64,000 nucleotides of DNA from an uncultured Ignavibacteria bacterium (GTDB lineage Bacteria; Bacteroidota; Ignavibacteria; UBA10030; UBA6906), in NCBI GenBank assembly GCA_963780165.1, contig CAWABB010000001.1:1816556-1880555 (forward strand), read 5' to 3'. Each line of letters begins with the position of its first letter. The first letter of the stretch is position 1. Shown here piece by piece: positions 3,316-57,897 of this stretch. A model generated the notes under the pieces. That model was not told the origin of the DNA, searched no databases, and saw only the letters and a program-made list of their open reading frames with translations. The position numbers were made by a program, and so were the translations under genes.

Positions 3316-3753
3316 TCAGTTGTTCTTCGCCCCCTGATTCACCCACTCGGTGATGATGCCGATGTCCCCGTCCGACAATGGCTTGATCGGCTCCTTCTTC
3401 CGCTTCTTGCGGGGATCAAAGGGCATCCGGTCGCCGAACGGCGGATTCTCCAGAAGCTTCTGCACGAAGACGCTCTCCGATGCCTTCCCCGGCTTAACCA
3501 AATCTCCGTGTTTCCCGCCTTTCATCAGCAGATCATACGAGTCGAGCGACAGCTCGCTCGGATTAAACTGCTCCTCCGCATGGCACGGCATGCAGTTCCT
3601 GCTGATGATCGGGACGATGTCTTGCGAGAATGATACGGGCGGGCGGACCTTCGGAGTATCCACTCTTTCCACGCCCTTCTCCTGCGCCCGCGCAGCAACC
3701 GCCCAGCCCACCACGAGCAGCGCCAACACACACCAACGATGACGTTCTCTCAA
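3316..3753 (-). CDS. Periplasmic monohaem c-type cytochrome, PSCyt1-like domain.
   Basis: It has a signal peptide (MRERHRWCVLALLVVGWAVAARA) and a single CXXCH motif (CMPCH). The C-terminus shows the pattern ...GG.HGDLVKPG...S.....L....FGDRMPF...LSDGDIGIITEWVNQGA, which resembles the Planctomycete-type cytochrome c (PSCyt1) domain. It is a paralogue of the C-terminus of the 4979..5683 gene. Confidence 0.7.
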   Translation of the reverse strand: MRERHRWCVLALLVVGWAVAARAQEKGVERVDTPKVRPPVSFSQDIVPIISRNCMPCHAEEQFNPSELSLDSYDLLMKGGKHGDLVKPGKASESVFVQKLLENPPFGDRMPFDPRKKRKKEPIKPLSDGDIGIITEWVNQGAKNN

Positions 3754-3764
3754 CGCGCCCTCCC

Positions 3765-4886
3765 TTACAGGTAAAAGTGAAGCATGATGTGAAACTCGTT
3801 GTTGGAGTAGTTCTCCGGCTCCTCCACGACCACGCGATACATCGGACGGACCTCTACGCCGCTCACGGGGAAAAATTCCACCCCGAAACTGTAGCGCGAC
3901 ATCGCGCCATCCTTCACGTCCTTGTCCGGATCGTAGAAATCGTATGCGACCTTCAGGTCCACGCCCGGCGTGACGACGTAGTTGGCCTCGGCGTATGCCA
4001 CGTAGCCGGTAACGGTCCCCGACGGATGTTTCGTCTGGATCATGTCCCCCTCGCCGAACAGCGTGAAGTCTCCGATGCTGAACGACCCAACGCCGCCGAA
4101 GAGATTCTGCGTCACGTCGCCCGAGGTCGTCGTCCCGAACATGTTCGCCCCCAGGCCGAGATGCATGTCTTTCCCAAGCTCGAAGAGACCGTCGGCCCTG
4201 ACCAGGTATGCCTTGCTGTTCCCCGTCGCGGCGCCGAAGCCGTCCTGCGCGTTGTACACCCCTGCAAACGCGGAGAACCAGCCGGGCGACACTCCCGCCT
4301 CGAGGCCCGTCAGCTCAGGCCGCGGGCTGGATTCCGGACTGAACCCCGTGTAGTGGCGGATGTAGGCCGTATGGTCGTCGAGGCGCGTACCAAAGTTCGG
4401 GACAAACTTTCCGACCTTCACGTGCCCGGCGGCCGGCAGCTGGGAGACCATGCCGAACAACTCAAAGCCACTGTAGAGGCCCTTTTCGAAATAGACGTTC
4501 ACCCTCTTGGCGAGCTTGAAGTTGAGGTACAGATCCCCCTGCATCTCCCAGAACGCGTTGCTGTTCTTCCCGGATGAGCCACCGGTGTCCGGCAGCTGCA
4601 CATAATAATAGAGCGTCCGCACGTCCACGCCGACTCCGACGAAGTTCGTGAGCAGCGTCGTAAAGTCTTCGATCTCCATGTCTGTGCCCCACTCCGGAAC
4701 CGGGAGCGTTTCCCGGCCGTACTGCGCACCAAACAGCTGCCGCATGCCGGCACCGGACGGGTTCACGTGACACGACTGGCACTTCGCGCCCGTCCTGCTC
4801 GAAAACCGCGGCAGGGCGGCAGCCTGGTTGAGCATGAACATCGCGCCAACCACAACGAGAGAAAGACAACGAAGCAGCACGCGCAT
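3765..4886 (-). CDS. cyc2: Cyc2-like fused monohaem cytochrome c / outer-membrane beta-barrel porin.
   Basis: It has a signal peptide (MRVLLRCLSLVVVGAMFMLNQAAA) followed by a single CXXCH (AKCQSCH) within 20 residues of the mature N-terminus. About 340 aa then follow with alternating hydrophobic beta-strand patterns rich in G/Y/F, ending ...IMLHFYL. Size (about 373 aa) and architecture match Cyc2-type iron-oxidase porin-cytochromes. The ATG is at 4884-4886 with an AAGGGA ribosome-binding site upstream. Confidence 0.6.
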   Translation of the reverse strand: MRVLLRCLSLVVVGAMFMLNQAAALPRFSSRTGAKCQSCHVNPSGAGMRQLFGAQYGRETLPVPEWGTDMEIEDFTTLLTNFVGVGVDVRTLYYYVQLPDTGGSSGKNSNAFWEMQGDLYLNFKLAKRVNVYFEKGLYSGFELFGMVSQLPAAGHVKVGKFVPNFGTRLDDHTAYIRHYTGFSPESSPRPELTGLEAGVSPGWFSAFAGVYNAQDGFGAATGNSKAYLVRADGLFELGKDMHLGLGANMFGTTTSGDVTQNLFGGVGSFSIGDFTLFGEGDMIQTKHPSGTVTGYVAYAEANYVVTPGVDLKVAYDFYDPDKDVKDGAMSRYSFGVEFFPVSGVEVRPMYRVVVEEPENYSNNEFHIMLHFYL

Positions 4887-4978
4887 GGTCGTCCCTTTCG
4901 GTCCTGGAGGTGGAATGCACGACACGGGAGGCGGGGAAATATACCTACCCCCCGTGTGTGATTCAACACAACCGACCA

Positions 4979-5683
4979 CTAGTTATTCAGCGCGCCCTGA
5001 TCGACCCAGGTACGGATGGTCGTGATACTCGCGTCCGGCAGGAACGGACCGCCCTGCGGCATGCGGGCACCGAAAGGCGGGTTCGGTGAGATCTTCTTCA
5101 CGAGGTTCGAGCCGGCTCCATCGCCAGGCACGATGGCCGGTCCATGGTTGCCGCCTCTGAGCAGGTCGGCAACCGTTTCCACCGTCAGCCCGTTGGTGCC
5201 GCCGTGGCACCCTGTGCAGCCGTGCTGCACCAGCAACGGGTGAACATCCTGCGAGAAGGAGACCTGTGTCGTCCCCGCCTGAACCGTTACTCCGACGGCA
5301 TTCGAGTTCGCGGAGATCCCGCCCGCCGTCACGGCGCGCACACGATAAAAGTAGCGCGCGCCGGTGGTGAGCCCGGTGATCGTGAGGGAGGTCGCAATTC
5401 CGGCGTCGCGGTTGTTGTAGCCGGCAAGGAACGAGCCGAACAGCGAATCCTGAGAGACGTCGAGGCGATAACCCGTAGCCCCGCTGACGGCGCTCCACCT
5501 TGCGGTGAAGCTTGAATCGGTGACGCCCGTCGGCGAGCCGGCGGTGGGGACGCCGGTGTCGGGCGGAGTAGCGGGGTTGGTGCCCGAATCGCTGCACCCC
5601 GCTGCCAGCAGCATCAGTCCGGCCATTGCTGCCAGAAGCGGGGACGCAGTCGTCGACCCGGCGGAGGATCGAACGATGAACAT
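4979..5683 (-). CDS. Lipoprotein with an FN3-like domain fused to a C-terminal monohaem cytochrome c (PSCyt1-like).
   Basis: Lipobox LLAAGC. The central part has a fibronectin-III-like segment (...GYRLDVSQD...TGLTTGARYFYRVRAVTAGG). The C-terminus has CTGCH plus ...GG.HGPAIVPGDGAGSNLVKKI...FGARMP...ITTIRTWVDQGA, homologous to the 3316..3753 gene. The ATG at 5681-5683 lies 17 nt after the CHRD gene stop. Confidence 0.7.
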   Translation of the reverse strand: MFIVRSSAGSTTASPLLAAMAGLMLLAAGCSDSGTNPATPPDTGVPTAGSPTGVTDSSFTARWSAVSGATGYRLDVSQDSLFGSFLAGYNNRDAGIATSLTITGLTTGARYFYRVRAVTAGGISANSNAVGVTVQAGTTQVSFSQDVHPLLVQHGCTGCHGGTNGLTVETVADLLRGGNHGPAIVPGDGAGSNLVKKISPNPPFGARMPQGGPFLPDASITTIRTWVDQGALNN

Positions 5684-5699
5684 GTGGTGGTGCCTCCTG

Positions 5700-7616
5700 T
5701 TATTTGAGTATGAGCATGCGTTTCGTGAGCGATGGGCCGCTGCCCGCATCCAGCCTGTAGAAATAGACGCCGCTGGAAAGTCCGCGCGCGTCAAAGGTGG
5801 CCAGGTAGGTCCCGGCCGGGCGCACGTCATCAACAAGTGTCGCGACCTCCTGCCCGAGCAGACTGTACACCTTCAGCGACACCCGACCGGGCTCCGGAAC
5901 CTGGAAGCGGATCGAGGTTGACGGATTGAAGGGGTTGGGATAGTTCTGATCCAGCGAAAAGGCTGACGGTAGAGCCTCCTCAACCGGCGCAACGGATGTC
6001 ACCGCGTCTGAACCGAAACGCACCTGTCCGCGGATCTCACCTCCCGGATGGGCGGCCGTATGGAAGTTAGCATAGATGCGACCAGCCAGCAAGGAATCCA
6101 CGAGCGCCCGGGTCAACGGCTGCGACGGGCTGTTCGTGGACCAGTTGTCCGCAATCGTTGCCGACGCAGGATCGCTTGCCCCGGCAATGTTCCGCACCAC
6201 GGGCCCGTTCACACCGACCGGCGCCGCATGGAAGTGCCCGCCGATCGAAAGCGGTCCGGAGAGGCCATAGTACGTAATTGCATAGCCAATGTCTTGACGT
6301 TCCGCATTCAGCACCACGGATCCCGCCCCGCGCCCCGCGGTTGCGACGGCAGGAACTTCCTGATCCCCGTCAAGCATGATGGTGAACCCCACGCCGGTGG
6401 TGAGATGCACCTGGTCTCTGATTTCGCCGGCCGGGTTCGCCGTCGTGTGGAAGTTTACGTAGATCCTCCCTGCCAGCAGCGCCTCCACCAGCGCGACTGT
6501 CAGCGGCTGGGAGTCGGTGGTCGTCCACGTCCCTGCATACGTGGCAGAAGCAGGGCCGCCGCCATTCGCTACACCGCGCACGACCGGCCCGGATTGCCCC
6601 TGATCGCCCGTATGGAAGTGTCCGCCGGCGGTCAGCGGCCCGGTCAGGCCGAAGTAGGTAATCTCGTAGCGCAATTCATTCCGCGCATCGTTCAGCGTGA
6701 ACGACCCGGCCCCTTTCCCGTCTGCGGTCACCGTCCCGGGTTCGTTAGAAGCTTCGAGCCACGAGAAGAAGCTCGTGCCGCCCTGGAGTTCGAGCTGGCC
6801 CCGGATCTCCCCTCCGGGATTCGCGGCGGTATGGAAGTTCACGTAGAGGCGCCCGGCAATGAGCGAATCCGCGAGCGCCGGTGTGAGCGGCGTGCTGTCC
6901 GTGAACTTCCAGCTTCCCTTGATGGCGTCCGCTGCGGGACCCCCGCCCGACGCGATTCCGAGCGCCACGGGCCCCGATACCCCACGAGCCCCCGTATGAA
7001 TGTGGCCGCCCGCACTGAGTGAGCCGCTCAGGTCGCGATAGGCCAGGTAGTAATCGAGCTGCGATCTGTTTGGAGATAGGATGAATACGCCCGTCCCCAT
7101 GGCGTCGGTCGTCACAGGATTCGGTTCCTGCGCCCCGGAGAGGTGCGCGGTGAAGTGCAGGGCTGTCGCAAGCGTGACCTGGCCCCGGATTTCGCCCGCC
7201 GGATTTGAGTTTGTATGGAAATTCACGTAGACCCGGCCGGTGAGCAACGACTCAACAAGTGCCGGTGTGAGCGGCTCTGTGTCGGTGCTCCGCCAGACTC
7301 CCGTGATGATCCCCGACGGCGCCGCCCCCGCCTCTGCAATGCCTCGCATGGCGGCGCCGTTTGTTCCCGGGGACCCCACGTGAAAATGCCCGCCCACCGA
7401 GAGCGCGCCTGTCAGCCCCTGATAGGAGATCACATACGCAAGCTCGGTGAACGTCTCATTCAGCGAGAACGAACCTGAGCCCGTCCCTGTGACGGCGGAG
7501 GGGGGAACGCTCTGCGCGCCGTTCAGCGTTGCCGAAAAGTGGATCTGCGCGTTCGCCGGGCCCGCCCCAGCAAGCACGAGAGCGATCAGCACCATGGTGT
7601 ATCGGAATCGAGTCAT
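5700..7616 (-). CDS. T9SS-secreted protein with four tandem CHRD domains.
   Basis: It has a signal peptide. Four modules of about 150 aa each carry the CHRD signature (GGH[FI]H.G..G..GPV...I.......G.W...D..PLT.ALV..LL.GR.YVNFHT..[NH]P.GEIRGQ). The C-terminus (NYPNPFNPSTSIRFQVPEPGRVSLKVYSLLGQEVATLVD...GVYFYRL) is a Por/T9SS C-terminal sorting domain. Confidence 0.8.
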   Translation of the reverse strand: MTRFRYTMVLIALVLAGAGPANAQIHFSATLNGAQSVPPSAVTGTGSGSFSLNETFTELAYVISYQGLTGALSVGGHFHVGSPGTNGAAMRGIAEAGAAPSGIITGVWRSTDTEPLTPALVESLLTGRVYVNFHTNSNPAGEIRGQVTLATALHFTAHLSGAQEPNPVTTDAMGTGVFILSPNRSQLDYYLAYRDLSGSLSAGGHIHTGARGVSGPVALGIASGGGPAADAIKGSWKFTDSTPLTPALADSLIAGRLYVNFHTAANPGGEIRGQLELQGGTSFFSWLEASNEPGTVTADGKGAGSFTLNDARNELRYEITYFGLTGPLTAGGHFHTGDQGQSGPVVRGVANGGGPASATYAGTWTTTDSQPLTVALVEALLAGRIYVNFHTTANPAGEIRDQVHLTTGVGFTIMLDGDQEVPAVATAGRGAGSVVLNAERQDIGYAITYYGLSGPLSIGGHFHAAPVGVNGPVVRNIAGASDPASATIADNWSTNSPSQPLTRALVDSLLAGRIYANFHTAAHPGGEIRGQVRFGSDAVTSVAPVEEALPSAFSLDQNYPNPFNPSTSIRFQVPEPGRVSLKVYSLLGQEVATLVDDVRPAGTYLATFDARGLSSGVYFYRLDAGSGPSLTKRMLILK

Positions 7617-7645
7617 GTGTGTCTCCAGTCTGGTTGCAGCTGTGG

Positions 7646-7852
7646 TTAGGCCGACCGTTTCGCGGTCGTGACCTTGAGCAATGCGTACAGCGGGCAGAAT
7701 CCGGCGGCACCCGTCACGAGCAGCACGACAGCCACGATCCCGAGGATCACGGCAGTCGGGCCGGTGAGCTGTCCACCCATGATCAACACTCCGATCGCAA
7801 GTGCGACGAGCGTCCGGATGACACGGTCCGCCGAGCCGACATTCTTTGTCAT
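7646..7852 (-). CDS. DUF2892 (YgaP-like) small inner-membrane protein.
   Basis: 68 aa with two TM helices. Conserved ADRVIR...G.......LTG..GFCPLYALL motif. It is the first gene of the operon and has a GGGGGGA ribosome-binding site. Confidence 0.65.
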   Translation of the reverse strand: MTKNVGSADRVIRTLVALAIGVLIMGGQLTGPTAVILGIVAVVLLVTGAAGFCPLYALLKVTTAKRSA

Positions 7853-7975
7853 TTCAGTCCCCCCAGAAAAAGGTTTGCGTACTGCGTTGATTCAGTTGCT
7901 GTCGCCGTCCTGATCTTCGTCGGGGAAGGCCTTCTCAAACGACCTTTTGATGTTGTCTTCGACCATCCTCGCAGG

Positions 7976-7991
7976 GTCAAGCACCGTGCCA
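7976..7991 (-). promoter_or_regulatory. Putative sigma54 (-24/-12) promoter reading toward the DUF2892/CHRD/Cyc2 operon.
   Basis: The minus strand reads TGGCACGGTGCTTGAC. This matches TGGCACG-N4-TTGMW, with GG at -24 and TTG at -12. The single mismatch is GA in place of the conserved GC. It lies about 125 bp upstream of the DUF2892 start, and a sigma54 activator is encoded adjacent. Confidence 0.45.
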
Positions 7992-8100
7992 CACCGGGAG
8001 GCGCGCAGGCCGGCATGAACATGGCGGAAATGGCTGATACGGTGCGGGTCCGGGGGGGAACGGGGATTTCAGGCCGCACCCCGGGTACGGAGATGGGCGA

Positions 8101-8128
8101 CCCGGTGTGGCGGCCGTGCCACACCGGG
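8101..8128. promoter_or_regulatory. Perfect inverted repeat CCCGGTGTGGC-N6-GCCACACCGGG, a candidate enhancer (UAS) for the adjacent NtrC-family activator.
   Basis: The arms are 11 bp with a 6-bp spacer. It lies about 115 bp upstream of the putative sigma54 promoter, relative to minus-strand transcription. The half-site GCCACACCGGG recurs at 7988-7998, overlapping the -24 element. Confidence 0.45.
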
Positions 8129-8223
8129 GAGAGGCTCAACGAAAGCCACGATGGAGCTCGCAAGAGACCGGGAGATGGTCTTTGGGAGACTGGGCTGAAG
8201 CGCGCAAAAGGCTGCGGCAGCGC

Positions 8224-9639
8224 TTACGCGCGATATGTGGCCGGGTCGATCGAGTGCTCGGCGAGTTTGCGGTACACGGTCTTCCTGTCCACCTCCATCA
8301 GCCGCGCTATCTGGTTGATGTTGCCCCGATGCTCCCGCATGAGCCGGAGCAGGTATCGCTCCTCGGCGACGCGCACAATCACCCCGAGATAATCGCGGTA
8401 CGGAATATCGAGGCCGGGGACGGCGGGTTGCTCATCTCCCGCGAGCGCGTGATCGGCGGCACCGGGGAGTTCGAGGTGCGTGATCGTGTCGCCGGGCGTC
8501 TTGAGCAGCGCACGCTTGATCAGGTTCTCGAGCTCGCGGACATTCCCGCGCCAGGGATGCGCAACCATCTCGCCGATGACGTCAGGACTGATGGAGGTGA
8601 CGCGCCCACCAGCAAGGTGGGCGTGAAGCCGCAAGAAATGCTCCGCAAGCAACGGGATGTCCTCCACGCGCTCGCGCAGTGGCGGAAGCGTGATCGGAAA
8701 CACGTTTAGACGGTAGAAGAGATCCTCGCGGAAATCTCCCGCAGCAACCATGACATCAAGATTGCGGTTCGTTGCGGCCACGACACGGGTGTCGACCGTA
8801 ACGGTCTTCCCTCCGCCGACGCGCTGGAATGTCTTTTCCTGCAGTACCCTCAGGAGCTTCCCCTGCAGCGCTGGCGGCATCTCCCCGATCTCATCCAGGA
8901 AGAGGGTCCCCGTGTCTGCCTCCTCGAACTTCCCGGTCCGCTGCCTGTCGGCTCCCGTGAACGAGCCCCGCTCGTGGCCGAACAGCTCGCTTTCCAGCAG
9001 TTGTTCCGGCAGCGCCGTACAGTTCACGGCAACGAACGGGCTCGACTTCCGTCTGCCGTTGAAGTGCAGCGCACGCGCGACAAGCTCCTTCCCGGTTCCG
9101 CTTTCACCAAGGATCAACACGGTCACGTCGGTGTCGGCAACCTGCGTGATCTGGGTGATCACGTCCCGTATCCCGGGGCTGCGGGAAACCATCCCGCCCA
9201 GACTGTACTTCGTCTGGACGGCGTCCCGCAGCGACCTGAGCTCGAGCTCCCGGAACTGCTGATCCAGAGCCCGGCGGATCTTGATCGACAGCTCCTCATT
9301 GTTGGACGGTTTGGTCAGGTAGTCGATGGCGCCGAGTCGCATGGCTTCCACCGCCGTCTGGATGGAACCGAATCCCGTCACCATGATCACAGGCAGGTCA
9401 GGCCACTGCTGCTTGACGATGCGAAGAAGGTCGATGCCACTTCCGCTCCCCATCACAAGATCGGAAAGGAGCAGGTCACATCGCTGGGCAGCGAGGATAT
9501 CGAGCGCTTTCGTGACGCCGTCGGCCAGCGTCACCTTGTAGCCCTCGTCCTCGAGCACGGTGCGGGTCGCCAGCCGGAAGGCTCCGTCGTCATCCGTCAC
9601 AAGGATGTGTTCTCTCGGGCGTGCGTCAGTGTGTGTCAT
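8224..9639 (-). CDS. Sigma54-dependent response regulator (NtrC family; REC-AAA+-HTH).
   Basis: Receiver domain (ILVTDDD...DLLLSDLVMG...). AAA+ sigma54-interaction domain (GESGTGKELVARALH, GAFTGA-like SFTGA). C-terminal Fis-type HTH. Its start overlaps the stop of the upstream kinase. Confidence 0.9.
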   Translation of the reverse strand: MTHTDARPREHILVTDDDGAFRLATRTVLEDEGYKVTLADGVTKALDILAAQRCDLLLSDLVMGSGSGIDLLRIVKQQWPDLPVIMVTGFGSIQTAVEAMRLGAIDYLTKPSNNEELSIKIRRALDQQFRELELRSLRDAVQTKYSLGGMVSRSPGIRDVITQITQVADTDVTVLILGESGTGKELVARALHFNGRRKSSPFVAVNCTALPEQLLESELFGHERGSFTGADRQRTGKFEEADTGTLFLDEIGEMPPALQGKLLRVLQEKTFQRVGGGKTVTVDTRVVAATNRNLDVMVAAGDFREDLFYRLNVFPITLPPLRERVEDIPLLAEHFLRLHAHLAGGRVTSISPDVIGEMVAHPWRGNVRELENLIKRALLKTPGDTITHLELPGAADHALAGDEQPAVPGLDIPYRDYLGVIVRVAEERYLLRLMREHRGNINQIARLMEVDRKTVYRKLAEHSIDPATYRA

Positions 9640-11209
9640 CGTGCGCGTCTCCGGACGGCAGCGTGATCGTGAGCCGTGTTCCCTTGCCGGCTGTGCTCTG
9701 GACGGTGATCGTGCCGCCGTGCTGGTGAACGATTCCGTGGGTGACCGAGAGGCCGAGGCCGACCCCGCTTACCTCTTTCTTTGTAGTGAAAAAGGCGTCG
9801 AAAATGCGATGAAGGTGTTCGGGAGGGATGCCCGTGCCGGTGTCGTCCACACGGACCACGAGGTTGCCTCCCTCCGCCCGCGCCCCGATCGAGATCGTCC
9901 CACCATGCGGCATCGCATCCCGCGAGTTCAGAAGAAGATTCAGGAACACCTGCTTCAGCTTGTCCCGGGATCCGCGGACTGCAGGGAGTCCGGGGCCCGC
10001 CGATACGTCGATCGAGATACCCTGCCCTGCGAACGATTCCCGGTACATGCGAACAACGTCTTCCACGAGGTCCATCACGTTCACCGGTGAGCGCTCCACC
10101 CGGACCGGAGCGCCGCGGTACATGTCCAGCATCGCCCTCGTCAATCCCGCAAGGCGGTTCACCTCGTCCAGCGCCACCGACACCAGCTCGTGCGCCGGAT
10201 CATCGGCGCGGATTTTCCGGAGCGATGAAGACAGGAGGCTCTGGATGTTATGGACGGGGTTGTTGATCTCGTGCGAAAGCTGGGCGGTCAGCGTGCCAGT
10301 CAGCGCGAGGCGCTCGCTGCGCACGAGGTCTTCCTGTGTCCTGCGCAGGCGCTCGAGTGCCTCTTCGATGTCACGATTCTTCCGCGACAGCTCACGGTTG
10401 GCGTGATCGAGCTCGCCGATCTTCTGCCTGAGCGAGAGACGCATGTCGTCGAACCTTGCCGCAAGGAACCCGAGCTCGTCTCCCGCGTCCGTTTCCTCCG
10501 CCGCCCGAGGGGTGGCAGACTCGAGGTCGCCCTTGCTGATCGCGCGGGTCGCCGCAACCAGCCGGTCCACCGGCCTGGTGACAAACCGCGTGAACATGAA
10601 CGACGAGACAAAGATGACGAGCCCCGTGAATCCCAGGAAGATGAGGAGCGACCGTGTCCAGTTCGCCCTGGTCGCGGCGGTCATATCGGCGAACGAAACG
10701 CTGAGGTCGGCCGCGCCAAGCGTGTAGCCCACGGGCACAGCATGGCACTCCTGGCAGGTCTTTGTTGCAGTGAACGGGATGACCCCTCGGAACCGATCGC
10801 CCGCCCGAACGAACTCGGGGGTTCCGCTCTCCAGTGCCTTCCGCGTCATCGGGTCGCGCGCACCGATGTCGACGAACCGGCGGCTGGTGGCGACCTTCGG
10901 CACCGCAGGCTGCGCTTCCTTGCGCAGCCGGAGGTCATTCACCACGAGCCGCACCGTCTCGAACCGCTCGATGGTATTCACCCGCTCGATAAACGCAGTA
11001 TCGACTTCCAGATTCGTCACCATCATGCTGACCAGGGATTCCCGGAGGATGTCGGCATGTGTGTGGGCGGACAACTGTGCCTGCTCCACCATTTCGCGCT
11101 CCTGGAACCGGTTCTGGAGGAGCACGCTAACCGAGATAAACAGGAGGAACAGGGGGAGAATCCCCAGGAGAATCTTCCGGGAGAGCGGCAGACGCTGCAG
11201 AACGTGCAT
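9626..11209 (-). CDS. Sensor histidine kinase with a periplasmic CXXCH (haem-c) containing sensor domain.
   Basis: N-terminal TM, a periplasmic domain of about 170 aa containing TKTCQECHAVPVGYTLGAADLSVSF, a second TM, HAMP, HisKA (LSHEINNPV) and HATPase_c. The periplasmic module may be Tll0287-like/DUF3365 (haem-c PAS-like), but this is unconfirmed. The likely start is the ATG at 11207-11209. Confidence 0.85.
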   Translation of the reverse strand: MHVLQRLPLSRKILLGILPLFLLFISVSVLLQNRFQEREMVEQAQLSAHTHADILRESLVSMMVTNLEVDTAFIERVNTIERFETVRLVVNDLRLRKEAQPAVPKVATSRRFVDIGARDPMTRKALESGTPEFVRAGDRFRGVIPFTATKTCQECHAVPVGYTLGAADLSVSFADMTAATRANWTRSLLIFLGFTGLVIFVSSFMFTRFVTRPVDRLVAATRAISKGDLESATPRAAEETDAGDELGFLAARFDDMRLSLRQKIGELDHANRELSRKNRDIEEALERLRRTQEDLVRSERLALTGTLTAQLSHEINNPVHNIQSLLSSSLRKIRADDPAHELVSVALDEVNRLAGLTRAMLDMYRGAPVRVERSPVNVMDLVEDVVRMYRESFAGQGISIDVSAGPGLPAVRGSRDKLKQVFLNLLLNSRDAMPHGGTISIGARAEGGNLVVRVDDTGTGIPPEHLHRIFDAFFTTKKEVSGVGLGLSVTHGIVHQHGGTITVQSTAGKGTRLTITLPSGDAHDDTH

Positions 11210-11331: not shown

Positions 11332-11781
11332 ATGTGCATTTCACATCGCACGCTGATGACGCCAAGCTCCTCGACACTCTCTCTTCTGGCCGCACTGGAC
11401 ACCGCCTCCCGCGGACAGCTGAAGCGACGCGACGACCTCGGAATATTGCTTGACCTGGGGGCCTCCCCGGAGCAGTCTGCCGTACTCGCCGATCTGGCAT
11501 TTCGCTCGAAATTCCTGACGCGCGCATTCGGCATCATGCAGAGGATCGGCCGTGAAGGGAATGGTTACGACAGGCTGGAAACGGAATTCGCCGTCAACAT
11601 GGACGCGGCCCGCGGCCGTCTGCGCTCACTTCTTTCCGGTGCCCCGGACGACATCCGAGACCGCTTCTCTTCCTCATACCTCGCACTGACCCCCGGCGGG
11701 CTCAGCACTCTGATGGCGCTCCTGGGCGATCTCACGTGGTACAAGAACTGGCTCCTCGACAGCAAGCAGGCGCACGTATGA
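11332..11781 (+). CDS. Hypothetical protein, first gene of an ATGA-coupled operon.
   Basis: 149-aa ORF with no recognizable motif. Its stop overlaps the next start (ATGA at 11778-11781). Confidence 0.45.
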   Translation: MCISHRTLMTPSSSTLSLLAALDTASRGQLKRRDDLGILLDLGASPEQSAVLADLAFRSKFLTRAFGIMQRIGREGNGYDRLETEFAVNMDAARGRLRSLLSGAPDDIRDRFSSSYLALTPGGLSTLMALLGDLTWYKNWLLDSKQAHV

Positions 11782-16280: not shown

Positions 16281-16988
16281 CTAGTCGCAGCACCCTCCGT
16301 GAGGAGCGGCCGGCAAGGGAGCCGCAGGGCTGACATACGGAATTCCCAGACCGAGCCCCCGCACAATCAACAACACGCCCAGCAGTGCGCCGAACCACGG
16401 GAGCATTGCGACGAGCTTCATCCTGAAGGAGCCCGGCAGTTTGTATCCCGCCATCGACAACCCCAGCATGATGGGCACAGTACCCGTGCCGAAGCCGGCC
16501 ATGAACATCACTCCGCCGGCCTCGGAGCCGGTCGTAGCCGCGCCGGCGAGCGCCGCCACAACGAACCCACACGGGAGAAAGCCGTTCAGCACGCCTACCA
16601 GAAACAACGCGAACAGCGACCGGCGTCGGAACAGCGAGCCCAGCGCGTCAGTCATGCGCCTCTGCACGGCATCGGCACCGGGGACACGGGGAAGGAAGCG
16701 GCGTGCAACCGCCGGGGCGAGGGATGTAAGAATCAGGAATGCGCCGAGAACAATGGAAAGGGCCTGCTGGTAGCCGAGAAGCGCGATGCCTCTGCCGATG
16801 GCGCCGACCACGAGGCCCAGCAGAGCGTATGTCACAATACGGCCGCTGTTGTAGGTAAGTCGACCTGCGAGGAGCGGCCATGCGGTCTTCCCGCCAGTTG
16901 GCAGCGCAAGCGCGATGGGCCCGCACATCCCGGCACAATGCACGCTTCCCATGACGCCGACAAGAAATCCCGATACAATCTCCATCAC
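16281..16988 (-). CDS. DsbD_2/TauE-like membrane protein associated with cbb3 oxidase maturation.
   Basis: Multi-TM protein with an HCAGMCGP motif near the N-terminus. It is the last gene of the cco cluster. Confidence 0.6.
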   Translation of the reverse strand: MMEIVSGFLVGVMGSVHCAGMCGPIALALPTGGKTAWPLLAGRLTYNSGRIVTYALLGLVVGAIGRGIALLGYQQALSIVLGAFLILTSLAPAVARRFLPRVPGADAVQRRMTDALGSLFRRRSLFALFLVGVLNGFLPCGFVVAALAGAATTGSEAGGVMFMAGFGTGTVPIMLGLSMAGYKLPGSFRMKLVAMLPWFGALLGVLLIVRGLGLGIPYVSPAAPLPAAPHGGCCD

Positions 16989-16995
16989 GGAGCCC

Positions 16996-17451
16996 TCAGT
17001 TCAGAACGACTTTCGCCTCTTCATAGTACTGCGCTCCGCCGGCGAGCCATTCGACCTTCACCGTCCAGAGCCCGGGGTGCAGCCACGGTGATTCAATACG
17101 CATCGTTCCGGACGAGTCCAGGCTGAGCGGCGCGGCAAAATCCATCGCGCGGTCCGACGGACGGTAGAGCGTCACGGTTCCGTTCACCTCGCCGGACCGA
17201 GCGACCCCGGGGATCATGATCGTCACGCCGCCGGTCGTTCCGCTCACCGTCATCAGGGCGCCCGAGGATCGCGCACGCTGGATGCTCTGAATCCGCCCCT
17301 CGTACTCGAGCCCCCGCTGGTAGTAGTCGTCCGCGACCAGGTCGGTCGGGCTCGAGAGCGCGATCCAGACCATCACTGCCAAGCCCACACCGAAGATCGC
17401 GAACGCGATCACGATCCCGGTCCCCCAGTTCAATGTGCGCGCCGCGTTCAT
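16996..17451 (-). CDS. ccoH: FixH/CcoH-family protein.
   Basis: Single N-terminal TM plus a FixH-like periplasmic domain. ATGA overlap with ccoG. Confidence 0.65.
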   Translation of the reverse strand: MNAARTLNWGTGIVIAFAIFGVGLAVMVWIALSSPTDLVADDYYQRGLEYEGRIQSIQRARSSGALMTVSGTTGGVTIMIPGVARSGEVNGTVTLYRPSDRAMDFAAPLSLDSSGTMRIESPWLHPGLWTVKVEWLAGGAQYYEEAKVVLN

Positions 17452-18893
17452 CGCTGCACCCCCGGACCGAGAAACGAGGTGTGAATCGTATGGAGCTTCT
17501 TCCCGTCCGCGTACACGCCAACGGTCAACGGTGTGCTCAGGCCCGTAAGCTGCTCGCGCTGCAGCAGAATCAGCAGCTTCGATTCCGCGATCCCCTGTGG
17601 CTCCGCCGCCAGGTCACCGCCCATGACCTCAATCTGCCCTTCCGTCTCCTCGAGGATGAACGTAACGGGCACTTTCACGAATGTCTTGTTCAGGACCTTC
17701 ACGTCGTATACGTTGCTGACCCTGCCGTCCGGGCGGTCCTGATAGAACATCCCCGGAGTACGGAGAACCGTCACATCGACCTCGCTCCGATTGGCCAGCA
17801 AAACAGTAAGGACGCTCACGAGGAGAAGCAGCACCACCGAGTATCCGATGACGCGGGACGTCCAGAGGCGCGACGTGCCGGTGGCGATCGCCGTGGCGGA
17901 GTCGTACCGTACGAGCCCACGGGGTTTCCCGATCTTGTCCATCACGGTGTCGCAGGCGTCGATGCATGCGGTACAGTTCACGCATTCCAGCTGCGTGCCG
18001 TTGCGGATGTCGATTCCTGTCGGACAAACCTCCACACACTGGTCGCAGTCGATGCAGTCGCCCTTCGTGCGGTCAGTGCCCCGGCGGAGCCTGCCCCGGG
18101 GTTCGCCGCGACGATAATCATACCCGATCACGATAGAGTTCTTGTCGAGGAGCACGCCCTGCAGCCTGCCGTACGGACAGACCAGGATACACGCCTGCTC
18201 GCGGAACCACGAGAAGATCCAATAGAACACCGTGCTGAAGATGAGCATCGCCGTGAGCCCGCCGATATGCCTGAAGGGCGGGTCGGTCACGATCGTCCAG
18301 AGCTGATCGGTCCCGATGATCCAGGCGAGCAGGGTGTTGCCGATAGCGAAGGCCAGCACGGCGTAGATGAGAAACTTCGTCCCCTTGCGGAGAAGCTTCT
18401 GGCTGTTCCAGGGGGACTCGTTCAGCCGGCGCTGCTGTCGGTGGTCCCCCTCCACCCAGTAGTCGATCTTGCGGAACACCATCTCCATGAATACGGTCTG
18501 CGGACAGACCCAGCCACAGAAAAGGCGCCCGAAGACGACCGTGAAAAGAATGATGAAGACGATCGTTGTGATGAGCGCTATGGCGAGCAAATAGAAGTCG
18601 TGGGGGCCGAACACGGTGCCGAACAGGATGAATCTCCGTTCGAGGATGTTGAAGAGGAAGAACGGCGTGTCGTGCATGCGGACGAACGGCATGCCGACGA
18701 GGAAGGCCAGGAGGAGAAAGCTCAGGATCGTGCGCCACCGGTAGAAGCGGCCAGACGGCTGCTTGGGATAGATCCAGCTCCGCTTCCCCTGTTTGTTGAC
18801 GATGGTCATCGAGTCACGGAAGCTCTCCGTGGCCTGACCCGGCTCCTCCGCCGCCCCCTCGGCCCGTACCGTTCCCCCGTCTGTGTCTCCCAT
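17448..18893 (-). CDS. ccoG: cbb3 oxidase accessory protein CcoG/FixG (4Fe-4S ferredoxin).
   Basis: TM helices plus two ferredoxin cysteine clusters (CILVCPYGRLQG; CIDCDQCVEVCPTGIDIR). Confidence 0.85.
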   Translation of the reverse strand: MGDTDGGTVRAEGAAEEPGQATESFRDSMTIVNKQGKRSWIYPKQPSGRFYRWRTILSFLLLAFLVGMPFVRMHDTPFFLFNILERRFILFGTVFGPHDFYLLAIALITTIVFIILFTVVFGRLFCGWVCPQTVFMEMVFRKIDYWVEGDHRQQRRLNESPWNSQKLLRKGTKFLIYAVLAFAIGNTLLAWIIGTDQLWTIVTDPPFRHIGGLTAMLIFSTVFYWIFSWFREQACILVCPYGRLQGVLLDKNSIVIGYDYRRGEPRGRLRRGTDRTKGDCIDCDQCVEVCPTGIDIRNGTQLECVNCTACIDACDTVMDKIGKPRGLVRYDSATAIATGTSRLWTSRVIGYSVVLLLLVSVLTVLLANRSEVDVTVLRTPGMFYQDRPDGRVSNVYDVKVLNKTFVKVPVTFILEETEGQIEVMGGDLAAEPQGIAESKLLILLQREQLTGLSTPLTVGVYADGKKLHTIHTSFLGPGVQR

Positions 18894-19727
18894 TTATCCG
18901 GTTGCCTTTGTGCTATCGGCCGGAGCGGCATTCACGGCGGGCTCGACGTACAGCGTTCCCTCCTGCTTCTTGGCATTCGGGGGGGCTGTTCCCTGCAGCG
19001 ACAAGACGTAACTGGCGATTTCCTGTATCTGCTTTGGCGTAAACACCAGCTGCCAGCTGATCATGCCTTTTGCCGCCACACCGTTCTTGATGGTTGCATA
19101 CACGTTTGAGATGGCACCCCCGTGAATCCAGTACTGGTCGGTGAGGTTGGGCCCCACCACGCCCTGCCCCTGGGGACCATGACAGGAAACGCAGTACTTG
19201 CCGAACGCTTCTTTGCCGCGCCCGAGGGCTCCCGGGTCCACGAGCGCCGCGAGCGCGTTCTCGTCGATCGCACCTTCTTTCGCGATCATCATCCGCCGCT
19301 GGAGATCCGCCGCCGCGACCTCCTGCCGGTACTCCTCGACCATGAGCGGCGAACTCCCGAGCACATGATAGCTGATCATATAGGTCGCCCCGAAGACGAT
19401 TGTCCCCAGGAAGAGCGTTGTGAACCAAGGAGGTATGCGGTTGTCCAGCTCCCGGATGTTGTCATACACGTGGTCGGGCATTTCGGCGTCGGCGGACTTC
19501 CCGGCAAGCGCATAGCGCCGCAGGAAGGCGAACGTCGCACCGAGCCGTTTCCGATCGGCCTCCGGGAGCACGAGGAGAAAGAAGAGGATCGCGATGATGA
19601 TGATCGTGGTTGTCGCGGTAAGGTTCAGCGCGAAGGTGGTGCCCGGATCCCCGGACCCCGCCGCGAACGCGGCGCCGGTGGGCATGATGGGAAGGGTCAT
19701 CATCAACATACGTCGCAGTGTTGTCAT
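18894..19727 (-). CDS. ccoP: cbb3-type cytochrome c oxidase subunit III (CcoP), monohaem variant.
   Basis: N-terminal TM/FixP_N-like region and a single CVSCHGPQGQG haem site. The ATG at 19725-19727 overlaps the ccoQ stop. Confidence 0.8.
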   Translation of the reverse strand: MTTLRRMLMMTLPIMPTGAAFAAGSGDPGTTFALNLTATTTIIIIAILFFLLVLPEADRKRLGATFAFLRRYALAGKSADAEMPDHVYDNIRELDNRIPPWFTTLFLGTIVFGATYMISYHVLGSSPLMVEEYRQEVAAADLQRRMMIAKEGAIDENALAALVDPGALGRGKEAFGKYCVSCHGPQGQGVVGPNLTDQYWIHGGAISNVYATIKNGVAAKGMISWQLVFTPKQIQEIASYVLSLQGTAPPNAKKQEGTLYVEPAVNAAPADSTKATG

Positions 19728-19912
19728 AGTCTCACTTCCTTTCCGCGCACGCTGTCATCGTCGAACGGGAGCCGCTCACAGTGGTCGATCCGCTCACGCG
19801 TGATATGGAACACCCGGACGACAATCAGGAGGAAGGCCAGGACCGAGAGTATGAGAGATACCTGGCCGATGTACTCCGAGCCGGTCAGGGATGAAAGATA
19901 GTGTGAGATCAC
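19724..19912 (-). CDS. ccoQ: Small cbb3 oxidase subunit (CcoQ-like).
   Basis: 62-aa single-TM peptide (VISHYLSSLTGSEYIGQVSLILSVLAFLLIVV...) with a GTG start. It lies between ccoNO and ccoP. Confidence 0.5.
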   Translation of the reverse strand: MISHYLSSLTGSEYIGQVSLILSVLAFLLIVVRVFHITRERIDHCERLPFDDDSVRGKEVRL

Positions 19913-19928
19913 GGTGGCTTTCCTCCTG

Positions 19929-22043
19929 TTACCGCTTCGCGCCTTTGATGTCGGTGCCCAGGCGCTGCAGGTACGCAATGAGGGCGATGATCTCCTTCTG
20001 CGGATCCGCCGGCGCCCCGGCCTTGGTGATGTCCGTCGCGAGCGCCTCGGCTTGAAGCTTGAGGTCCTCAACAGCGCGCTCATCGTAGCCGGCCGGGTAC
20101 GGAACGCCGAGCGACTGCATGGCCCGGATCTTTGCAGCGGTCGAACCGACATCCAGATCCTGCGACAACAGCCAGGGGTATGCCGGCATGATGGATCCTG
20201 GTGACATGGAGGTCGGCTCGTTCATATGGAGGTAGTGCCAGAGATTCGGAAACTTGCCGCCGACGCGATGGAGATCAGGCCCTGTCCGTTTGGACCCCCA
20301 GAGGAACGGATGGTCGTAGACAAATTCCCCGGCCTTCGAGTACTCGCCGTAGCGCTCCGTCTCCGACCGGAACGGGCGCACCATCTGGGAGTGACAGTTG
20401 TTGCACCCCTCGCGGATGTAAATGTCCCGTCCCTGGAGCTCCAGCGGCGTGTACGGCTTCACGCTGGAGATGGTGGGGATGTTGCTCTTTACGACGTAGG
20501 TGGGGATGATCTCGACCAGGCCGCCGATCAGGATCAGCACGAGCGCAAGGACAGTGAACTGCGCCGGTTTCCGCTCGATCCAGCGGTGGCGGGATTCCTT
20601 CGGACCGTGATGATCGGCCGCAAGCGGCGCTGCAGCAGCTTCGACGGAGGCCTCAAACTTTCCCTGACGGGCCGTTTTGACCAGGTTGTACGTCATCACC
20701 ACGACGCCGCCCAGATACAGGGTTCCCCCGAAAGCCCTGATCGTCCAGAACGGGACGATCTGCAGGACGGTTTCTAGGAAGTTCGGGTACTGCAGGGTTC
20801 CAAAGTCCGTGAACTGCTTCCACATCAGGGACTGTGTCAGGCCGGAGGTGTACATGGCCACCGCGTAGAACACGATGCCGAGCGTCCCGATCCAGAAGTG
20901 GAGGTTTGCCAGCGTGCGGGAATAAAGCGTCGTCCCGTACAGTTTCGGCACCAGCCAGTAGAGCATCCCGAACGTGAGGAACCCGTTCCAGCCAAGGGCC
21001 CCGACGTGCACGTGCGAGATGATCCAGTCTGTGTAGTGCATGATGGCGTTCACGTTCTTGAGCGAGAGCGCCGGGCCCTCGAACGTCGCCATCCCGTAGG
21101 CGGTAACCGCAACCACCATGAACTTCAGCACGGGGTCCTCACGCACCTTGTCCCATGCTCCCCGGAGCGTCAGCAGACCGTTGATCATGCCGCCCCACGA
21201 CGGGGCGAGCAGCATGACCGAGAAGACCGTACCGAGCGACTGCGCCCAGTCCGGCAGGGCCGTGTAGAGCAGATGGTGCGGGCCCGCCCAGATATAGATA
21301 AAGATCAGCGACCAGAAGTGGATGATGGAGAGCCGGTAAGAGTAGACCGGCCGGTCAGCCGCTTTCGGGAGGAAGTAATACATCAGCCCAAGGAACGGGG
21401 TCGTGAGGAAGAACGCCACCGCGTTGTGCGCGTACCACCACTGGACCAGCGCATCCTGCACGCCCGCATACAGGGGGTAGCTCTTCATGATCGACGCGGG
21501 CAGCTCAAACGAGTTCACGATGTGCAGAACGGCGACGGTGACAATCGTCGCGATGTAGAACCAGATTGCCACGTACATGTGGCGTTCCCGCCGTTTGACC
21601 AGGGTGCCGAACAGGTTGATGGCGAAGACCACCCAGACCAGCGTGATCGCGATGTCGATGGGCCATTCCAGCTCCGCATACTCCTTGCTGGTCGTGAGTC
21701 CCAGCGGGAGCGTCAAGGCGGCGGAGACGATGATCCCCTGCCAGCCCCAGAAGTGGATCCACCCCAGCAGCCTGCTGAACATCGGCGTCTTGCACAGGCG
21801 GGGAAGTGAATAGTAGATGCCCGTGAAGACCGCGTTCCCCACGAAGGCAAAGATCACGGCGTTCGTGTGCAGCGGCCGGATGCGGCCGAAGGTGATGTAC
21901 TGGAGGCCGGCGTTGAGCGAGGGGATGAACAGCTGGAAGGCGATGATGACGCCGACCAGCATCCCCACAAGGCCCCAGACGACCGTCGCAATGGTGAACG
22001 CGCGGACGATCGTGTTGTCGTATCGGAAGCGTTCGAGTTCCAT
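19929..22043 (-). CDS. ccoNO: Fused cbb3-type cytochrome c oxidase subunits I+II (CcoNO).
   Basis: Haem-copper oxidase subunit I with 12 TM and His ligands, fused to a monohaem CcoO (CNNCHSQMVRPF...WHYLHMNEP). The likely start is the ATG at 22041-22043 (MELERFRYDN...). Confidence 0.9.
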   Translation of the reverse strand: MELERFRYDNTIVRAFTIATVVWGLVGMLVGVIIAFQLFIPSLNAGLQYITFGRIRPLHTNAVIFAFVGNAVFTGIYYSLPRLCKTPMFSRLLGWIHFWGWQGIIVSAALTLPLGLTTSKEYAELEWPIDIAITLVWVVFAINLFGTLVKRRERHMYVAIWFYIATIVTVAVLHIVNSFELPASIMKSYPLYAGVQDALVQWWYAHNAVAFFLTTPFLGLMYYFLPKAADRPVYSYRLSIIHFWSLIFIYIWAGPHHLLYTALPDWAQSLGTVFSVMLLAPSWGGMINGLLTLRGAWDKVREDPVLKFMVVAVTAYGMATFEGPALSLKNVNAIMHYTDWIISHVHVGALGWNGFLTFGMLYWLVPKLYGTTLYSRTLANLHFWIGTLGIVFYAVAMYTSGLTQSLMWKQFTDFGTLQYPNFLETVLQIVPFWTIRAFGGTLYLGGVVVMTYNLVKTARQGKFEASVEAAAAPLAADHHGPKESRHRWIERKPAQFTVLALVLILIGGLVEIIPTYVVKSNIPTISSVKPYTPLELQGRDIYIREGCNNCHSQMVRPFRSETERYGEYSKAGEFVYDHPFLWGSKRTGPDLHRVGGKFPNLWHYLHMNEPTSMSPGSIMPAYPWLLSQDLDVGSTAAKIRAMQSLGVPYPAGYDERAVEDLKLQAEALATDITKAGAPADPQKEIIALIAYLQRLGTDIKGAKR

Positions 22044-22050
22044 GCGTTCC

Positions 22051-22227
22051 TTACGATAGATGATGATTCGAGTCCCGCGGCGCGGGATTCGGCTCGTCAA
22101 ACAACATGCGTATAGATGGCGTCACGCGGTCATCGTACTGCCCCGACCGGACCGCCCAGAGGAACGCCAGGAGAAATCCTCCCGCGAGCATCAGGCTGGC
22201 TCCGATCATGACCGCGATGACGGACAT
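22051..22227 (-). CDS. ccoS: cbb3 oxidase maturation protein CcoS/FixS.
   Basis: 58 aa (MSVIAVMIGASLMLAGGFLLAFLWAVRSGQYDDRVTPSIRMLFDE). It is absent from the ORF track because it is under 60 aa. It lies between ccoI and ccoNO. Confidence 0.75.
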   Translation of the reverse strand: MSVIAVMIGASLMLAGGFLLAFLWAVRSGQYDDRVTPSIRMLFDEPNPAPRDSNHHLS

Positions 22228-26330: not shown

Positions 26331-26727
26331 CTGGATTTCACCTACCTGTTGACAGCATTGTGGACACCTTTCGCCTGAAAGGCAACGACCATAGCACACC
26401 ACCCAGTCTGACCTCACCAAACGCCCCACTCAGCTTTTGTTGAATTGCCATGGGAAAGGCTGTGACTTGACATTCCCTCCTGTCCTCGGTAGCTTGGTGA
26501 AACCATTCCACTGATCGTGGATGGGTGTTGCTGCACAACTGCGGCTCACTGTTCTTGTGGTACAGGATGTTCCTCCTCGGTTCGCATCCAGCTCTCCCGG
26601 TCACACGTGAGTGTGCTCGCCCGGATTTTGTGCGGACCTGCAACTTCCAACCCCTGCGGCCCCTCCACCCGACATCCAACCGTCTCCGTTTCAATTTCTC
26701 AACCCTCCTAATCTTGAGGAGCACGTA

Positions 26728-29328: not shown

Positions 29329-29340
29329 CCGGAGGTGGGT

Positions 29341-32175: not shown

Positions 32176-32547
32176 TCAGCACCCATCCGGACAAAACACT
32201 GGACACCGATCGCTCCCGTACCCAAAGGTGCAATTGTGTTTTGGTGCAGGAGGGTGTGCTATGTCCCGCTACCACGCATACCCGATATCAAACCTGAGCG
32301 CGGGCGCCCATCCGTCGAACTTCCCGATGCCATCCGTCGGTTTCATTCTTGTTCTCTCCCTGCATCTAGCTCCCGTACGTTGAGAGGGCCCGCGTGTTGG
32401 AGGGACGCCGGCCTTCAGACTCCTTAATACACATACGAAATGCCAGACCTGGCTTCCCGCGGAGGGATTCTGAGATCCTCCCTGACGTTGACTATCAGGC
32501 ATGCCGGATGTAGATTGGCCCACAGCTCACAAGCCACCATTCCACAC

Positions 32548-56838: not shown

Positions 56839-57897
<1,059 letters not shown>

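Follow-up and report, generated by a model that had tools for sequence, protein, structure and literature searches.

When microbial iron oxidation is inferred from metagenomes, Cyc2 is the genetic marker most relied upon. Keffer et al. (2021) define it by a signal peptide, a single N-terminal CXXCH, the motif AXPXFAR[Q/K][T/Y], a PXL motif, a 16-strand porin resembling OprO and OprP, and a length of at least 365 amino acids (aa) (PMC8406198). Cyc2 proteins from several clusters oxidise Fe(II) upon expression in E. coli, and the Cyc2-type proteins characterised to date are all Fe(II) oxidases (PMC8406198, PMC13647500). In neutrophilic iron oxidisers, electrons have been proposed to pass from Cyc2 to Cyc1 or another periplasmic cytochrome and then to a cbb3 oxidase (McAllister 2020, PMC7029218). 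Here, we analyse a 64,000-nucleotide stretch of DNA from an uncultured Ignavibacteria bacterium (assembly GCA_963780165.1, contig CAWABB010000001.1; G+C 62%), hereafter the window. Seven co-directional genes on its minus strand, between positions 3316 and 11209, encode a sensor histidine kinase, a sigma-54 activator, a DUF2892 membrane protein, a protein with four CHRD domains exported by the type IX secretion system (T9SS), a cytochrome lipoprotein, a monohaem cytochrome fused to a porin, and a small monohaem cytochrome. In the sequence of its haem module, the product of the porin-cytochrome gene is remotely related to Cyc2; its architecture is Cyc2-like, and it lies outside Cyc2 as published.

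Like the pathway of McAllister and the rus operon of Acidithiobacillus ferrooxidans, this locus places the gene of an outer-membrane monohaem porin-cytochrome beside genes of small periplasmic cytochromes, in a genome with a cbb3 oxidase. Unlike them, it has neither rusticyanin nor a dihaem Cyc1, its cbb3 genes are nearby (8 kb) and outside the cluster, and the window shows no sign of autotrophy. The CHRD and DUF2892 accessories and the regulator made of sigma-54 and a haem-motif kinase have not been described for either system. In the MtoAB, PioAB and MtrCAB complexes, too, an outer-membrane barrel and a c-type cytochrome together move electrons across that membrane. However, they consist of two proteins, a decahaem cytochrome and the 26-strand barrel through which it is threaded (PMC8406198), whereas the present protein has its 16 strands and its one haem motif in a single chain.

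The minus-strand genes were called from open reading frames (ORFs) and from Pfam and NCBIfam profile searches, and the proteins of the window were compared by tblastn with 24 related loci, in which the identity of the porin-cytochrome ranges from 29% to 98%. The closest locus, L004 (98% identical at the protein level), belongs to a soil metagenome-assembled genome (MAG), "uncultured Ignavibacteria bacterium MFD00032.bin.1.149". Other relatives come from MAGs of Ignavibacteria and Bacteroidota from soil, fen and groundwater. An earlier note on this DNA, made from the sequence alone, had read the locus as an inducible pathway of Fe(II) oxidation or extracellular electron uptake built around a Cyc2-like protein. 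The profile searches bear out the domain content it gave for every gene. The haem motif of the kinase, the sigma-54 promoter and the cbb3 gene set also stand; the parts left unsupported or weakened are a place of the central protein within canonical Cyc2, a single sigma-54 transcript of the five genes after the promoter, a link to the cbb3 oxidase, and Fe(II) oxidation as such.

The porin-cytochrome and its relation to Cyc2

The gene at 3765..4886 (minus strand) encodes a fused monohaem cytochrome-porin of 373 aa, just above the length filter for Cyc2, with a signal peptide, a ALPRFSSRTGAK-CQSCH-VNPSGAGMR module and a 16-strand barrel. The signal peptide, read from the sequence and the alignment, is MRVLLRCLSLVVVGAMFMLNQAAA, ahead of a conserved LPRF. 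It is followed, near the N-terminus, by a single CQSCH (residues 36-40, positions 4767-4781) within the motif region AALPRFSSRTGAK-CQSCH-VNPSGAGMR. Residues C36, C39 and H40 are invariant across 36 aligned homologues, as are P43 and G45 in 36 close ones. The AlphaFold2 (AF2) model predicts 16 strands in a C-terminal porin structurally like OprO and OprP; the Porin_4 profile matches weakly and under its cut-off (E 1.4e-3). Sequence searches of the PDB gave no match for this protein or for the small cytochrome, and NCBIfam assigned neither the three cytochromes nor the DUF2892 protein of the locus to any family.

The haem module follows the layout of that of Cyc2. The consensus over 238 relatives is A-[LV]-P-R-[FY]-[AS]-[AS]-R-[TY]-G-x-x-CxxCH-V-N-P-[ST]-G-G-G-[ML]-R, where A-x-P-x-F-[AS]-x-R-[TY]-G-x-x-CxxCH matches the Cyc2 signature A-x-P-x-F-A-R-[QK]-[TY]-x3-CxxCH in register and spacing. 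The A, P, F and [TY] of the Cyc2 motif and the three residues between it and the first Cys are retained. The present family shares several traits with Cyc2 (Cluster 1, of Gallionellaceae, Zetaproteobacteria and Chlorobium; Cluster 2, of Acidithiobacillus ferrooxidans; Cluster 3, which includes Cyt572 of Leptospirillum): a signal peptide, one CXXCH within about 40 residues, the A-x-P-x-F-A..[TY] motif with its three-residue spacing, a 16-strand OprP-like barrel, and genes of periplasmic c-type cytochromes that follow. It differs in many others. Where Cyc2 has FAR[QK][TY], the family has FA[AS]R[TY] (consensus ALPRFA[AS]R[TY]) and the window protein FSSRT (ALPRFSSRT); where Cyc2 has PXL, the family motif after the haem site is an invariant VNP[ST]GGG[ML]R. 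Its members span 350-410 aa, compared with 407-529 aa for the canonical proteins, and their partners are monohaem cytochromes of the PSCyt1 type instead of Cyc1 or c4. Their hosts are uncultured Ignavibacteria and Bacteroidota, in contrast to those of the canonical clusters.

Profile comparisons detect the relation at the N-terminus. The reference set was drawn from 120 metagenomic loci encoding FARQTxxxCxxCH, fetched by DNA pattern. Complete proteins of 407-529 aa, with the continuation ...CH..FPxL[TN]xFGRxFK, are encoded by 88 of them, and one subgroup was validated as of Cluster-1 type by its named homologues (50-57% identity), which are from Sideroxydans, Gallionella and Gallionellaceae MAGs. 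Full-length profile-profile comparisons with the Cyc2 sets gave probabilities of 96-97% (E 1e-9 to 3e-11) over 52-231 columns from the N-terminus, and 96% (E 3.7e-9) with the Cluster-1 profile of Gallionellaceae/Sideroxydans type. The probability was still 92-96% once the signal peptides were removed. Overall, the hhalign values for the N-terminal module range from 92% to 97%, with E from 6e-7 to 3e-11, and the detectable relation to the Cyc2 profiles is confined to the first ~50-110 residues.

Several results weigh against regarding this protein as a Cyc2 and, with it, against an electron conduit modelled on Cyc2. Hidden Markov models (HMMs) built from the fetched canonical sets score it at 17-23 bits, over residues 5-43 only. 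When the comparison with Cyc2 is restricted to the barrels, by cutting away the first ~30 residues that follow the haem motif, it finds nothing (probability <6%); the canonical subgroups recognise each other at 99.8-100% over the full length and at 96-98% over the barrel only. The motif AXPXFAR[Q/K][T/Y], screened as PXFAR[Q/K][T/Y], is absent, its R and Q/K positions being substituted. So is PXL four residues after the CXXCH, where VNPSGAGMR has no Leu. The AF2 model has low confidence at residues 17-76, so it does not fix the position of the haem domain. The match limited to the haem module, the lack of similarity between the barrels and the two missing motifs are the reasons why we place the protein outside published Cyc2. 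The description of a Cyc2-like cytochrome fused to a beta-barrel, given in the earlier note, is apt for the architecture and not for membership of canonical Cyc2.

The family defined by this protein is, as far as its sequences tell, distinct, large and separate from Cyc2 as published. The search returned 532 matches among 90% clusters and 1,084 representatives at 50% identity (E<=1e-3), nearly all with 340-420 aa. All come from metagenomic sequences thus far, with no named member from an isolate; functional names are lacking throughout, and looking up the clusters of distant relatives yielded no informative ones. Cyc2-like genes have been reported, from HMM or BLAST screens, in MAGs of Fe(III)-reducing taxa that include Ignavibacteriaceae (PMC6344600, PMC8478452), and the general idea of such genes in Ignavibacteria is therefore not new. 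FeGenie also calls iron-oxidation genes in MAGs of Ignavibacteriales (PMC8478452), hits that may or may not belong to the present family. The literature that we found on the evolution and the sequence similarity networks of Cyc2 does not mention this lineage. In the literature found, nothing describes this separate family, its association with PSCyt1 and CHRD proteins, or the wiring of a haem-motif kinase to sigma-54.

PSCyt1, CHRD and DUF2892 partners

The most constant neighbours of the porin-cytochrome are cytochromes of the PSCyt1 type. In the window, the gene at 3316..3753 (minus strand) encodes a secreted monohaem cytochrome c of 145 aa (PF07635, E 3.9e-6), with CMPCH at 3580-3594. On the other side, the gene at 4979..5683 (minus strand) encodes a lipoprotein (lipobox LAAGC) in which an FN3 domain (fn3, 2.5e-9) precedes a monohaem PSCyt1 module (6e-7) with CTGCH at 5204-5218; its ATG is at 5683, a small correction of the previous coordinates. 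One or two PSCyt1 genes adjoin the porin-cytochrome gene in 22 of the 24 loci, on the upstream side in L024 and immediately after it in the other 21. The two loci lacking such a neighbour are L001, where the gene is alone, and L007, where the contig ends. In a relative with 34% identity (L146), the porin-cytochrome gene has as neighbours a PSCyt1-like gene and the gene of a dihaem c4-like cytochrome. The PSCyt1-like partner of L146 (7519-8001) has CDFGGCH, a CX4CH, in place of CXXCH, and the dihaem c4-like gene comes next.

Upstream of the lipoprotein gene, the gene at 5700..7616 (minus strand) encodes a protein of 638 aa with four CHRD domains (E 5e-105). Its residues 559-635 form a T9SS sorting domain (TIGR04183, 6.9e-10; PF18962, 2.9e-7), as expected of type A cargo, and the window encodes two further T9SS cargo proteins. 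All four CHRD repeats retain GGH(F/I)H and NFHT, a suggestion that they may hold a metal site. The protein has a weak sequence match to the structures of human chordin CHRD domains (9qvv and 9rd6). These domains have a Greek-key fold like that of Cu,Zn superoxide dismutase (SOD), and those of chordin bind no metal (PMC13382577).

A gene with four CHRD domains is linked to the porin-cytochrome in 7 of the 24 loci, from two clades and in both orientations. In addition, a gene with a single CHRD domain lies directly downstream of the canonical Cyc2-like gene in L115 (159-893, minus strand) and L128 (1550-2338, minus strand). Since CHRD genes thus also adjoin canonical Cyc2-like genes, the association between CHRD and porin-cytochromes recurs across both families. 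The earlier note had remarked on the absence of CHRD from described Cyc2 systems; our literature search found no paper that mentions CHRD together with Cyc2, and the remark gains weight from these two canonical neighbours. This recurrent partnership gives a first clue to the function of CHRD domains in bacteria. L115 and L128 are unrelated metagenome contigs; in the latter, the CHRD gene is followed by a gene encoding a 463-aa monohaem protein. The remaining gene of the group (7646..7852, minus strand) encodes a YgaP-like/DUF2892 membrane protein of 68 aa with two transmembrane segments (PF11127, E 1.1e-20). Among the related loci, we found it in L002 and L004 only.

Kinase, activator and promoters

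Systems of the NtrC type combine an activator made of receiver, AAA+ and helix-turn-helix domains with a sigma-54 promoter and with palindromic upstream activator sites (UAS), such as those of NtrC and NifA. The gene at 8224..9639 (minus strand) encodes such an activator, with Response_reg (2.9e-27), Sigma54_activat (PF00158, E 7e-73) and HTH_8 (4.6e-6) domains. Its AAA+ sigma-54 interaction domain has a GAFTGA-type loop, which reads GSFTGA. Its matches to AtoC/NtrC-like NCBIfam profiles are under the equivalog cut-offs. The adjacent gene, at 9626..11209 (minus strand; ORF to 11305), encodes the partner sensor kinase, with HAMP, HisKA and HATPase_c domains (Pfam) in a form of 527 aa; conservation among its orthologues begins at MHVLQRLPLSRK, and the orthologues start with MHVLQRL. 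Two hydrophobic segments start near residues 7-15 and 186-189. The haem-c attachment motif CQECH of the sensor domain (10742..10756, minus strand; residues 152-156) is located between them and is therefore placed in the periplasm, in agreement with the earlier note's kinase with a periplasmic CXXCH. It is part of CQ[EK]CHAVP[VI]GY, invariant in six kinase orthologues with 55-89% identity. For the periplasmic domain (residues ~34-185), Pfam returned nothing even at E<=1, and this region may be an undescribed haem-c sensor domain.

The pair of kinase and activator genes is present in 6 of the 24 related loci, and a seventh has the activator alone. This system shares with those of the NtrC type the GAFTGA-type loop, the TGGCAC-N5-TTG promoter and one or two inverted repeats ~100-150 bp upstream. 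It differs from them in a kinase sensor that has a c-type haem motif and belongs to no Pfam family, and in a -12 element that reads TTGAC in much of the lineage. In L004, the kinase, activator, CHRD and porin genes contain frameshifts, which are probably assembly errors.

A promoter of the sigma-54 type (TGGCAC-N5-TTGAC, in TGGCACGGTGCTTGAC) lies at 7976..7991 (minus strand), upstream of the DUF2892 gene. Its -24 element is perfect, and TGGCAC-N5-TTG occurs twice in the 64 kb, against 0.4 expected. A perfect palindrome, TGTGGC-N6-GCCACA (8106..8123), lies 115 bp ahead of the -24 element as a candidate UAS; it is the only one in the 64 kb, where 0.14 are expected. A weak, degenerate second copy may be present at 8062..8080 (minus strand): this site, GGTGCGGCCTGAAATCCCC, aligns with the second TGTGGCATGAA(T/C)TCCC site of L004, L015 and L011. 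The layout is conserved in nine loci, with one or two palindromes and then, ~100-150 bp further on, TGGCAC-N5 followed by TTGAC, TTGAA or TTGC[ATC]. In seven of them (the window, L002, L004, L007, L008, L009 and L014), the promoter is 108-236 bp past the stop codon of the activator gene; in L011 and L015, a canonical sigma-54 promoter precedes the CHRD operon. This is the classic layout of enhancer-dependent sigma-54 promoters, and its conservation is good comparative evidence that the promoter posited in the earlier note is real. The caveat is the -12 dinucleotide, which counts against the regulatory part of our interpretation: it is GA instead of GC in the window, as in L002, L008, L009 and L014 (all TTGAC), and L004 has TTGAA. 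The GC is found in L007, L011 and L015 (TTGCC, TTGCT and TTGCA, respectively). We rejected the palindrome at 8106-8123 as an intrinsic terminator of the activator gene: it has no T-run and belongs to a duplicated and conserved UAS-like pair. The second TGGCAC-N5-TTG site of the window (57723-57738, plus strand; TGGCAC-N5-TTGCC) may be a chance match. It is inside an ORF similar to malate/lactate dehydrogenases (56839-57879, minus strand), ~245 bp upstream of the ORF at 57981-58535.

The genes that follow this promoter vary. The first one encodes the DUF2892 protein in the window and in L002, a DUF4382-like lipoprotein in L004, L011 and L015, and a sigma factor of the extracytoplasmic function (ECF) type in L008, L009 and L014; in L007, it belongs to a set of T9SS proteins. 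The lipoprotein gene of L004 (6230-6961; 243 aa) is an extra gene between the promoter and the DUF2892 gene, which the window lacks; its homologues in L011 and L015 are at the same place. The ECF-type genes (8901-9563 in L008, 8972-9634 in L009, and 9189-9779 in L014) are between the promoter and the porin-cytochrome cluster, which suggests a cascade from sigma-54 to ECF in these loci; we saw no anti-sigma gene there.

A second promoter, sigma-70-like (TTGAAT-17-TATATT), is located at 4938..4966 (minus strand), in the 92-bp gap and ~55 bp upstream of the start of the porin-cytochrome gene. An equivalent element (TTGCAT or TTGTAT, then TATATT) is found at the same place in L002, L004, L006, L007, L008, L009 and L010; L014 has TATATT only. 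An imperfect inverted repeat (ACACGGGGGG...CCCGTGT) overlaps the -10 region of this promoter in the window. The gaps between the five genes that the earlier note had placed under one sigma-54 promoter are short (29, 16, 92 and 11 bp). Even so, a single sigma-54-dependent transcript of five genes is not established, because the porin-cytochrome has its own sigma-70-like promoter and the first genes differ among loci. In summary, the sigma-54 system is probably linked to the locus, as its conserved arrangement indicates, while sigma-54 control of the porin-cytochrome gene is unproven.

Possible electron transfer and alternative explanations

The window also contains the full cbb3 gene set, 8 kb away, that the earlier note had pointed out. 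It extends over 16281..24626 (minus strand) and includes DsbD_2 (16281-16988), FixH, CcoG, CcoP, a CcoNO fusion (19929-22100) and a CcoI-type P-type ATPase (22227-24626). Its near end is 5 kb past the kinase gene and 8.4 kb from the first gene of the putative operon; on the grounds of this proximity, the oxidase is a possible electron sink for the locus.

Our favoured, if tentative, explanation is that the locus encodes an outer-membrane electron conduit made of the Cyc2-related porin-cytochrome and its PSCyt1 cytochromes, and we find it quite plausible. Such a conduit would have two parts: a 16-strand porin with a fused monohaem c-type cytochrome, and dedicated PSCyt1 cytochromes, of which one would be soluble (3316-3753) and the other, which has an FN3 domain, lipid-anchored (4979-5683). 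On the model of Cyc2, the single haem at the pore, presumably loaded at the CQSCH, would be reached by a dissolved reductant from outside the cell, of which Fe(II) is the most plausible. Electrons would then move to the small periplasmic cytochromes and on to a terminal oxidase such as the nearby cbb3. The T9SS-exported CHRD protein and the DUF2892 protein would be accessories, expressed from the sigma-54 promoter under the adjacent NtrC-type activator, for which the haem-motif kinase would presumably serve as a redox or gas sensor. For its transcription, the pair of porin-cytochrome and PSCyt1 genes could in addition rely on the sigma-70-like promoter that it has for itself. Of the pathway put forward in the earlier note, the part that we keep is thus a possible conduit across the outer membrane; Fe(II) as its electron donor would follow from the Cyc2 analogy. 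The wiring of the kinase to sigma-54 offers a testable regulatory handle.

Besides the differences from Cyc2 described above, other observations speak against this explanation. Keffer et al. caution that the Cyc2 homologues of organisms that do not oxidise iron may have other roles (PMC8406198). The organisms of the present family appear to be heterotrophs, and every named relative comes from a MAG of Ignavibacteria or Bacteroidota. The homologue of L001 (58% identical) has no cytochrome partner and is found beside a cation diffusion facilitator (CDF) transporter. The adjacency of the regulator could partly reflect vertical inheritance; the neighbourhood as a whole is syntenic across this lineage, which tempers all arguments based on adjacency.

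One may ask whether the same conduit runs outwards, from the periplasmic pool to soluble acceptors (chelated Fe(III), humic quinones or shuttles), as part of the anaerobic or microoxic respiration of a heterotroph. The direction of electron flow is not fixed by anything in the sequence, the window encodes functions typical of heterotrophs (sugar ABC transport, glycosidase-like genes, a malate/lactate dehydrogenase), and Ignavibacteria have been described as Fe(III) reducers, with Cyc2-like genes in MAGs of such taxa (PMC6344600, PMC8478452). Yet, this reversal runs counter to the Fe(II) oxidation found in all characterised Cyc2-type proteins (PMC8406198, PMC13647500). Moreover, one haem in a narrow 16-strand pore could not reach mineral surfaces, and neither the locus nor the related loci examined encode multihaem cytochromes. 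We regard outward flow as unlikely. We find it similarly improbable that the locus serves a non-respiratory function in envelope redox or metal homeostasis, such as the detoxification of Fe(II), Cu(I) or reactive oxygen species on the surface of the cell, or the redox conversion of metals for uptake, with a surface CHRD protein handling metal or superoxide. The SOD-like Greek-key fold of CHRD (PMC13382577) would fit this role, as would the HxH plus H triad kept in all four repeats, although chordin CHRD binds no metal (PMC13382577) and CHRD is missing from most loci of the family. The cation-efflux gene beside one homologue points the same way, and a stress-type two-component system, sigma-54, and the ECF sigma factors of relatives are typical of envelope stress control; DUF2892/YgaP-like proteins are small membrane proteins with no known role, compatible with such a function. 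On the other hand, the three c-type cytochromes of the cluster and the strict linkage to periplasmic cytochromes (22/24) favour transfer of electrons through the envelope over a local reaction.

Finally, the genes might be neighbours by descent. The functional unit would then be the porin-cytochrome and PSCyt1 on their own sigma-70-like promoter, kept in 9 loci, with sigma-54 controlling whichever gene comes first, be it for DUF2892, a DUF4382-like lipoprotein, an ECF sigma factor or T9SS proteins. The synteny of the wider neighbourhood agrees with this scenario, as does the absence of the kinase and activator genes from many loci of the family. But where the pair is present, it has stayed beside the cluster although the genes between them were rearranged in three different ways. 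The linkage with CHRD recurs in two clades, in differing orientations, and beside canonical Cyc2-like genes. The coding strand shows no terminator-like site between 4979 and 4886. We consider mere descent very doubtful.

A broader version of the conduit interpretation is possible, though we think it less likely than not. In it, the porin-cytochromes would be an unrecognised and very widespread family (at least 1,084 clusters; PRFA[AS]R[TY]Gxx-CxxCH-VNP[ST]GGG[ML]R) that the motif filter for Cyc2 excludes. Together with PSCyt1, it would give uncultured soil and sediment Ignavibacteria and Bacteroidota a route of their own for electron exchange with iron or other soluble redox compounds. CHRD proteins of the surface or the periplasm would be a general, hitherto undescribed accessory of Cyc2-type conduits, given that they also adjoin canonical Cyc2-like genes, and the system as a whole would respond to the kinase, a new type of haem-c sensor. 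If the family is active, the cycling of iron or electron shuttles by abundant heterotrophic Bacteroidota and Ignavibacteria of soils and sediments would have been missed or mislabelled.

Other genes of the window deserve mention. After the cytochrome cluster, there is a gene for a 7TM-receptor HD-domain hydrolase (PgpH-like; 890-3187, minus strand), found at the same place in nine related loci; this probably reflects conserved synteny and not function. Divergent from the kinase gene, the ORF at 11332-11781 (plus strand; 149 aa, no Pfam match) is kept in 12 related loci, including a clade of 40% identity that lacks the kinase-activator pair. Further away, three consecutive ORFs of 715, 421 and 402 aa (36243-40938, plus strand), also with no Pfam match, have two sets of genes upstream of them: those for a Reg_prop/Y_Y_Y hybrid kinase and for a LuxR-type regulator (32440-36108), and those for two large T9SS cargo proteins (26611-32175).

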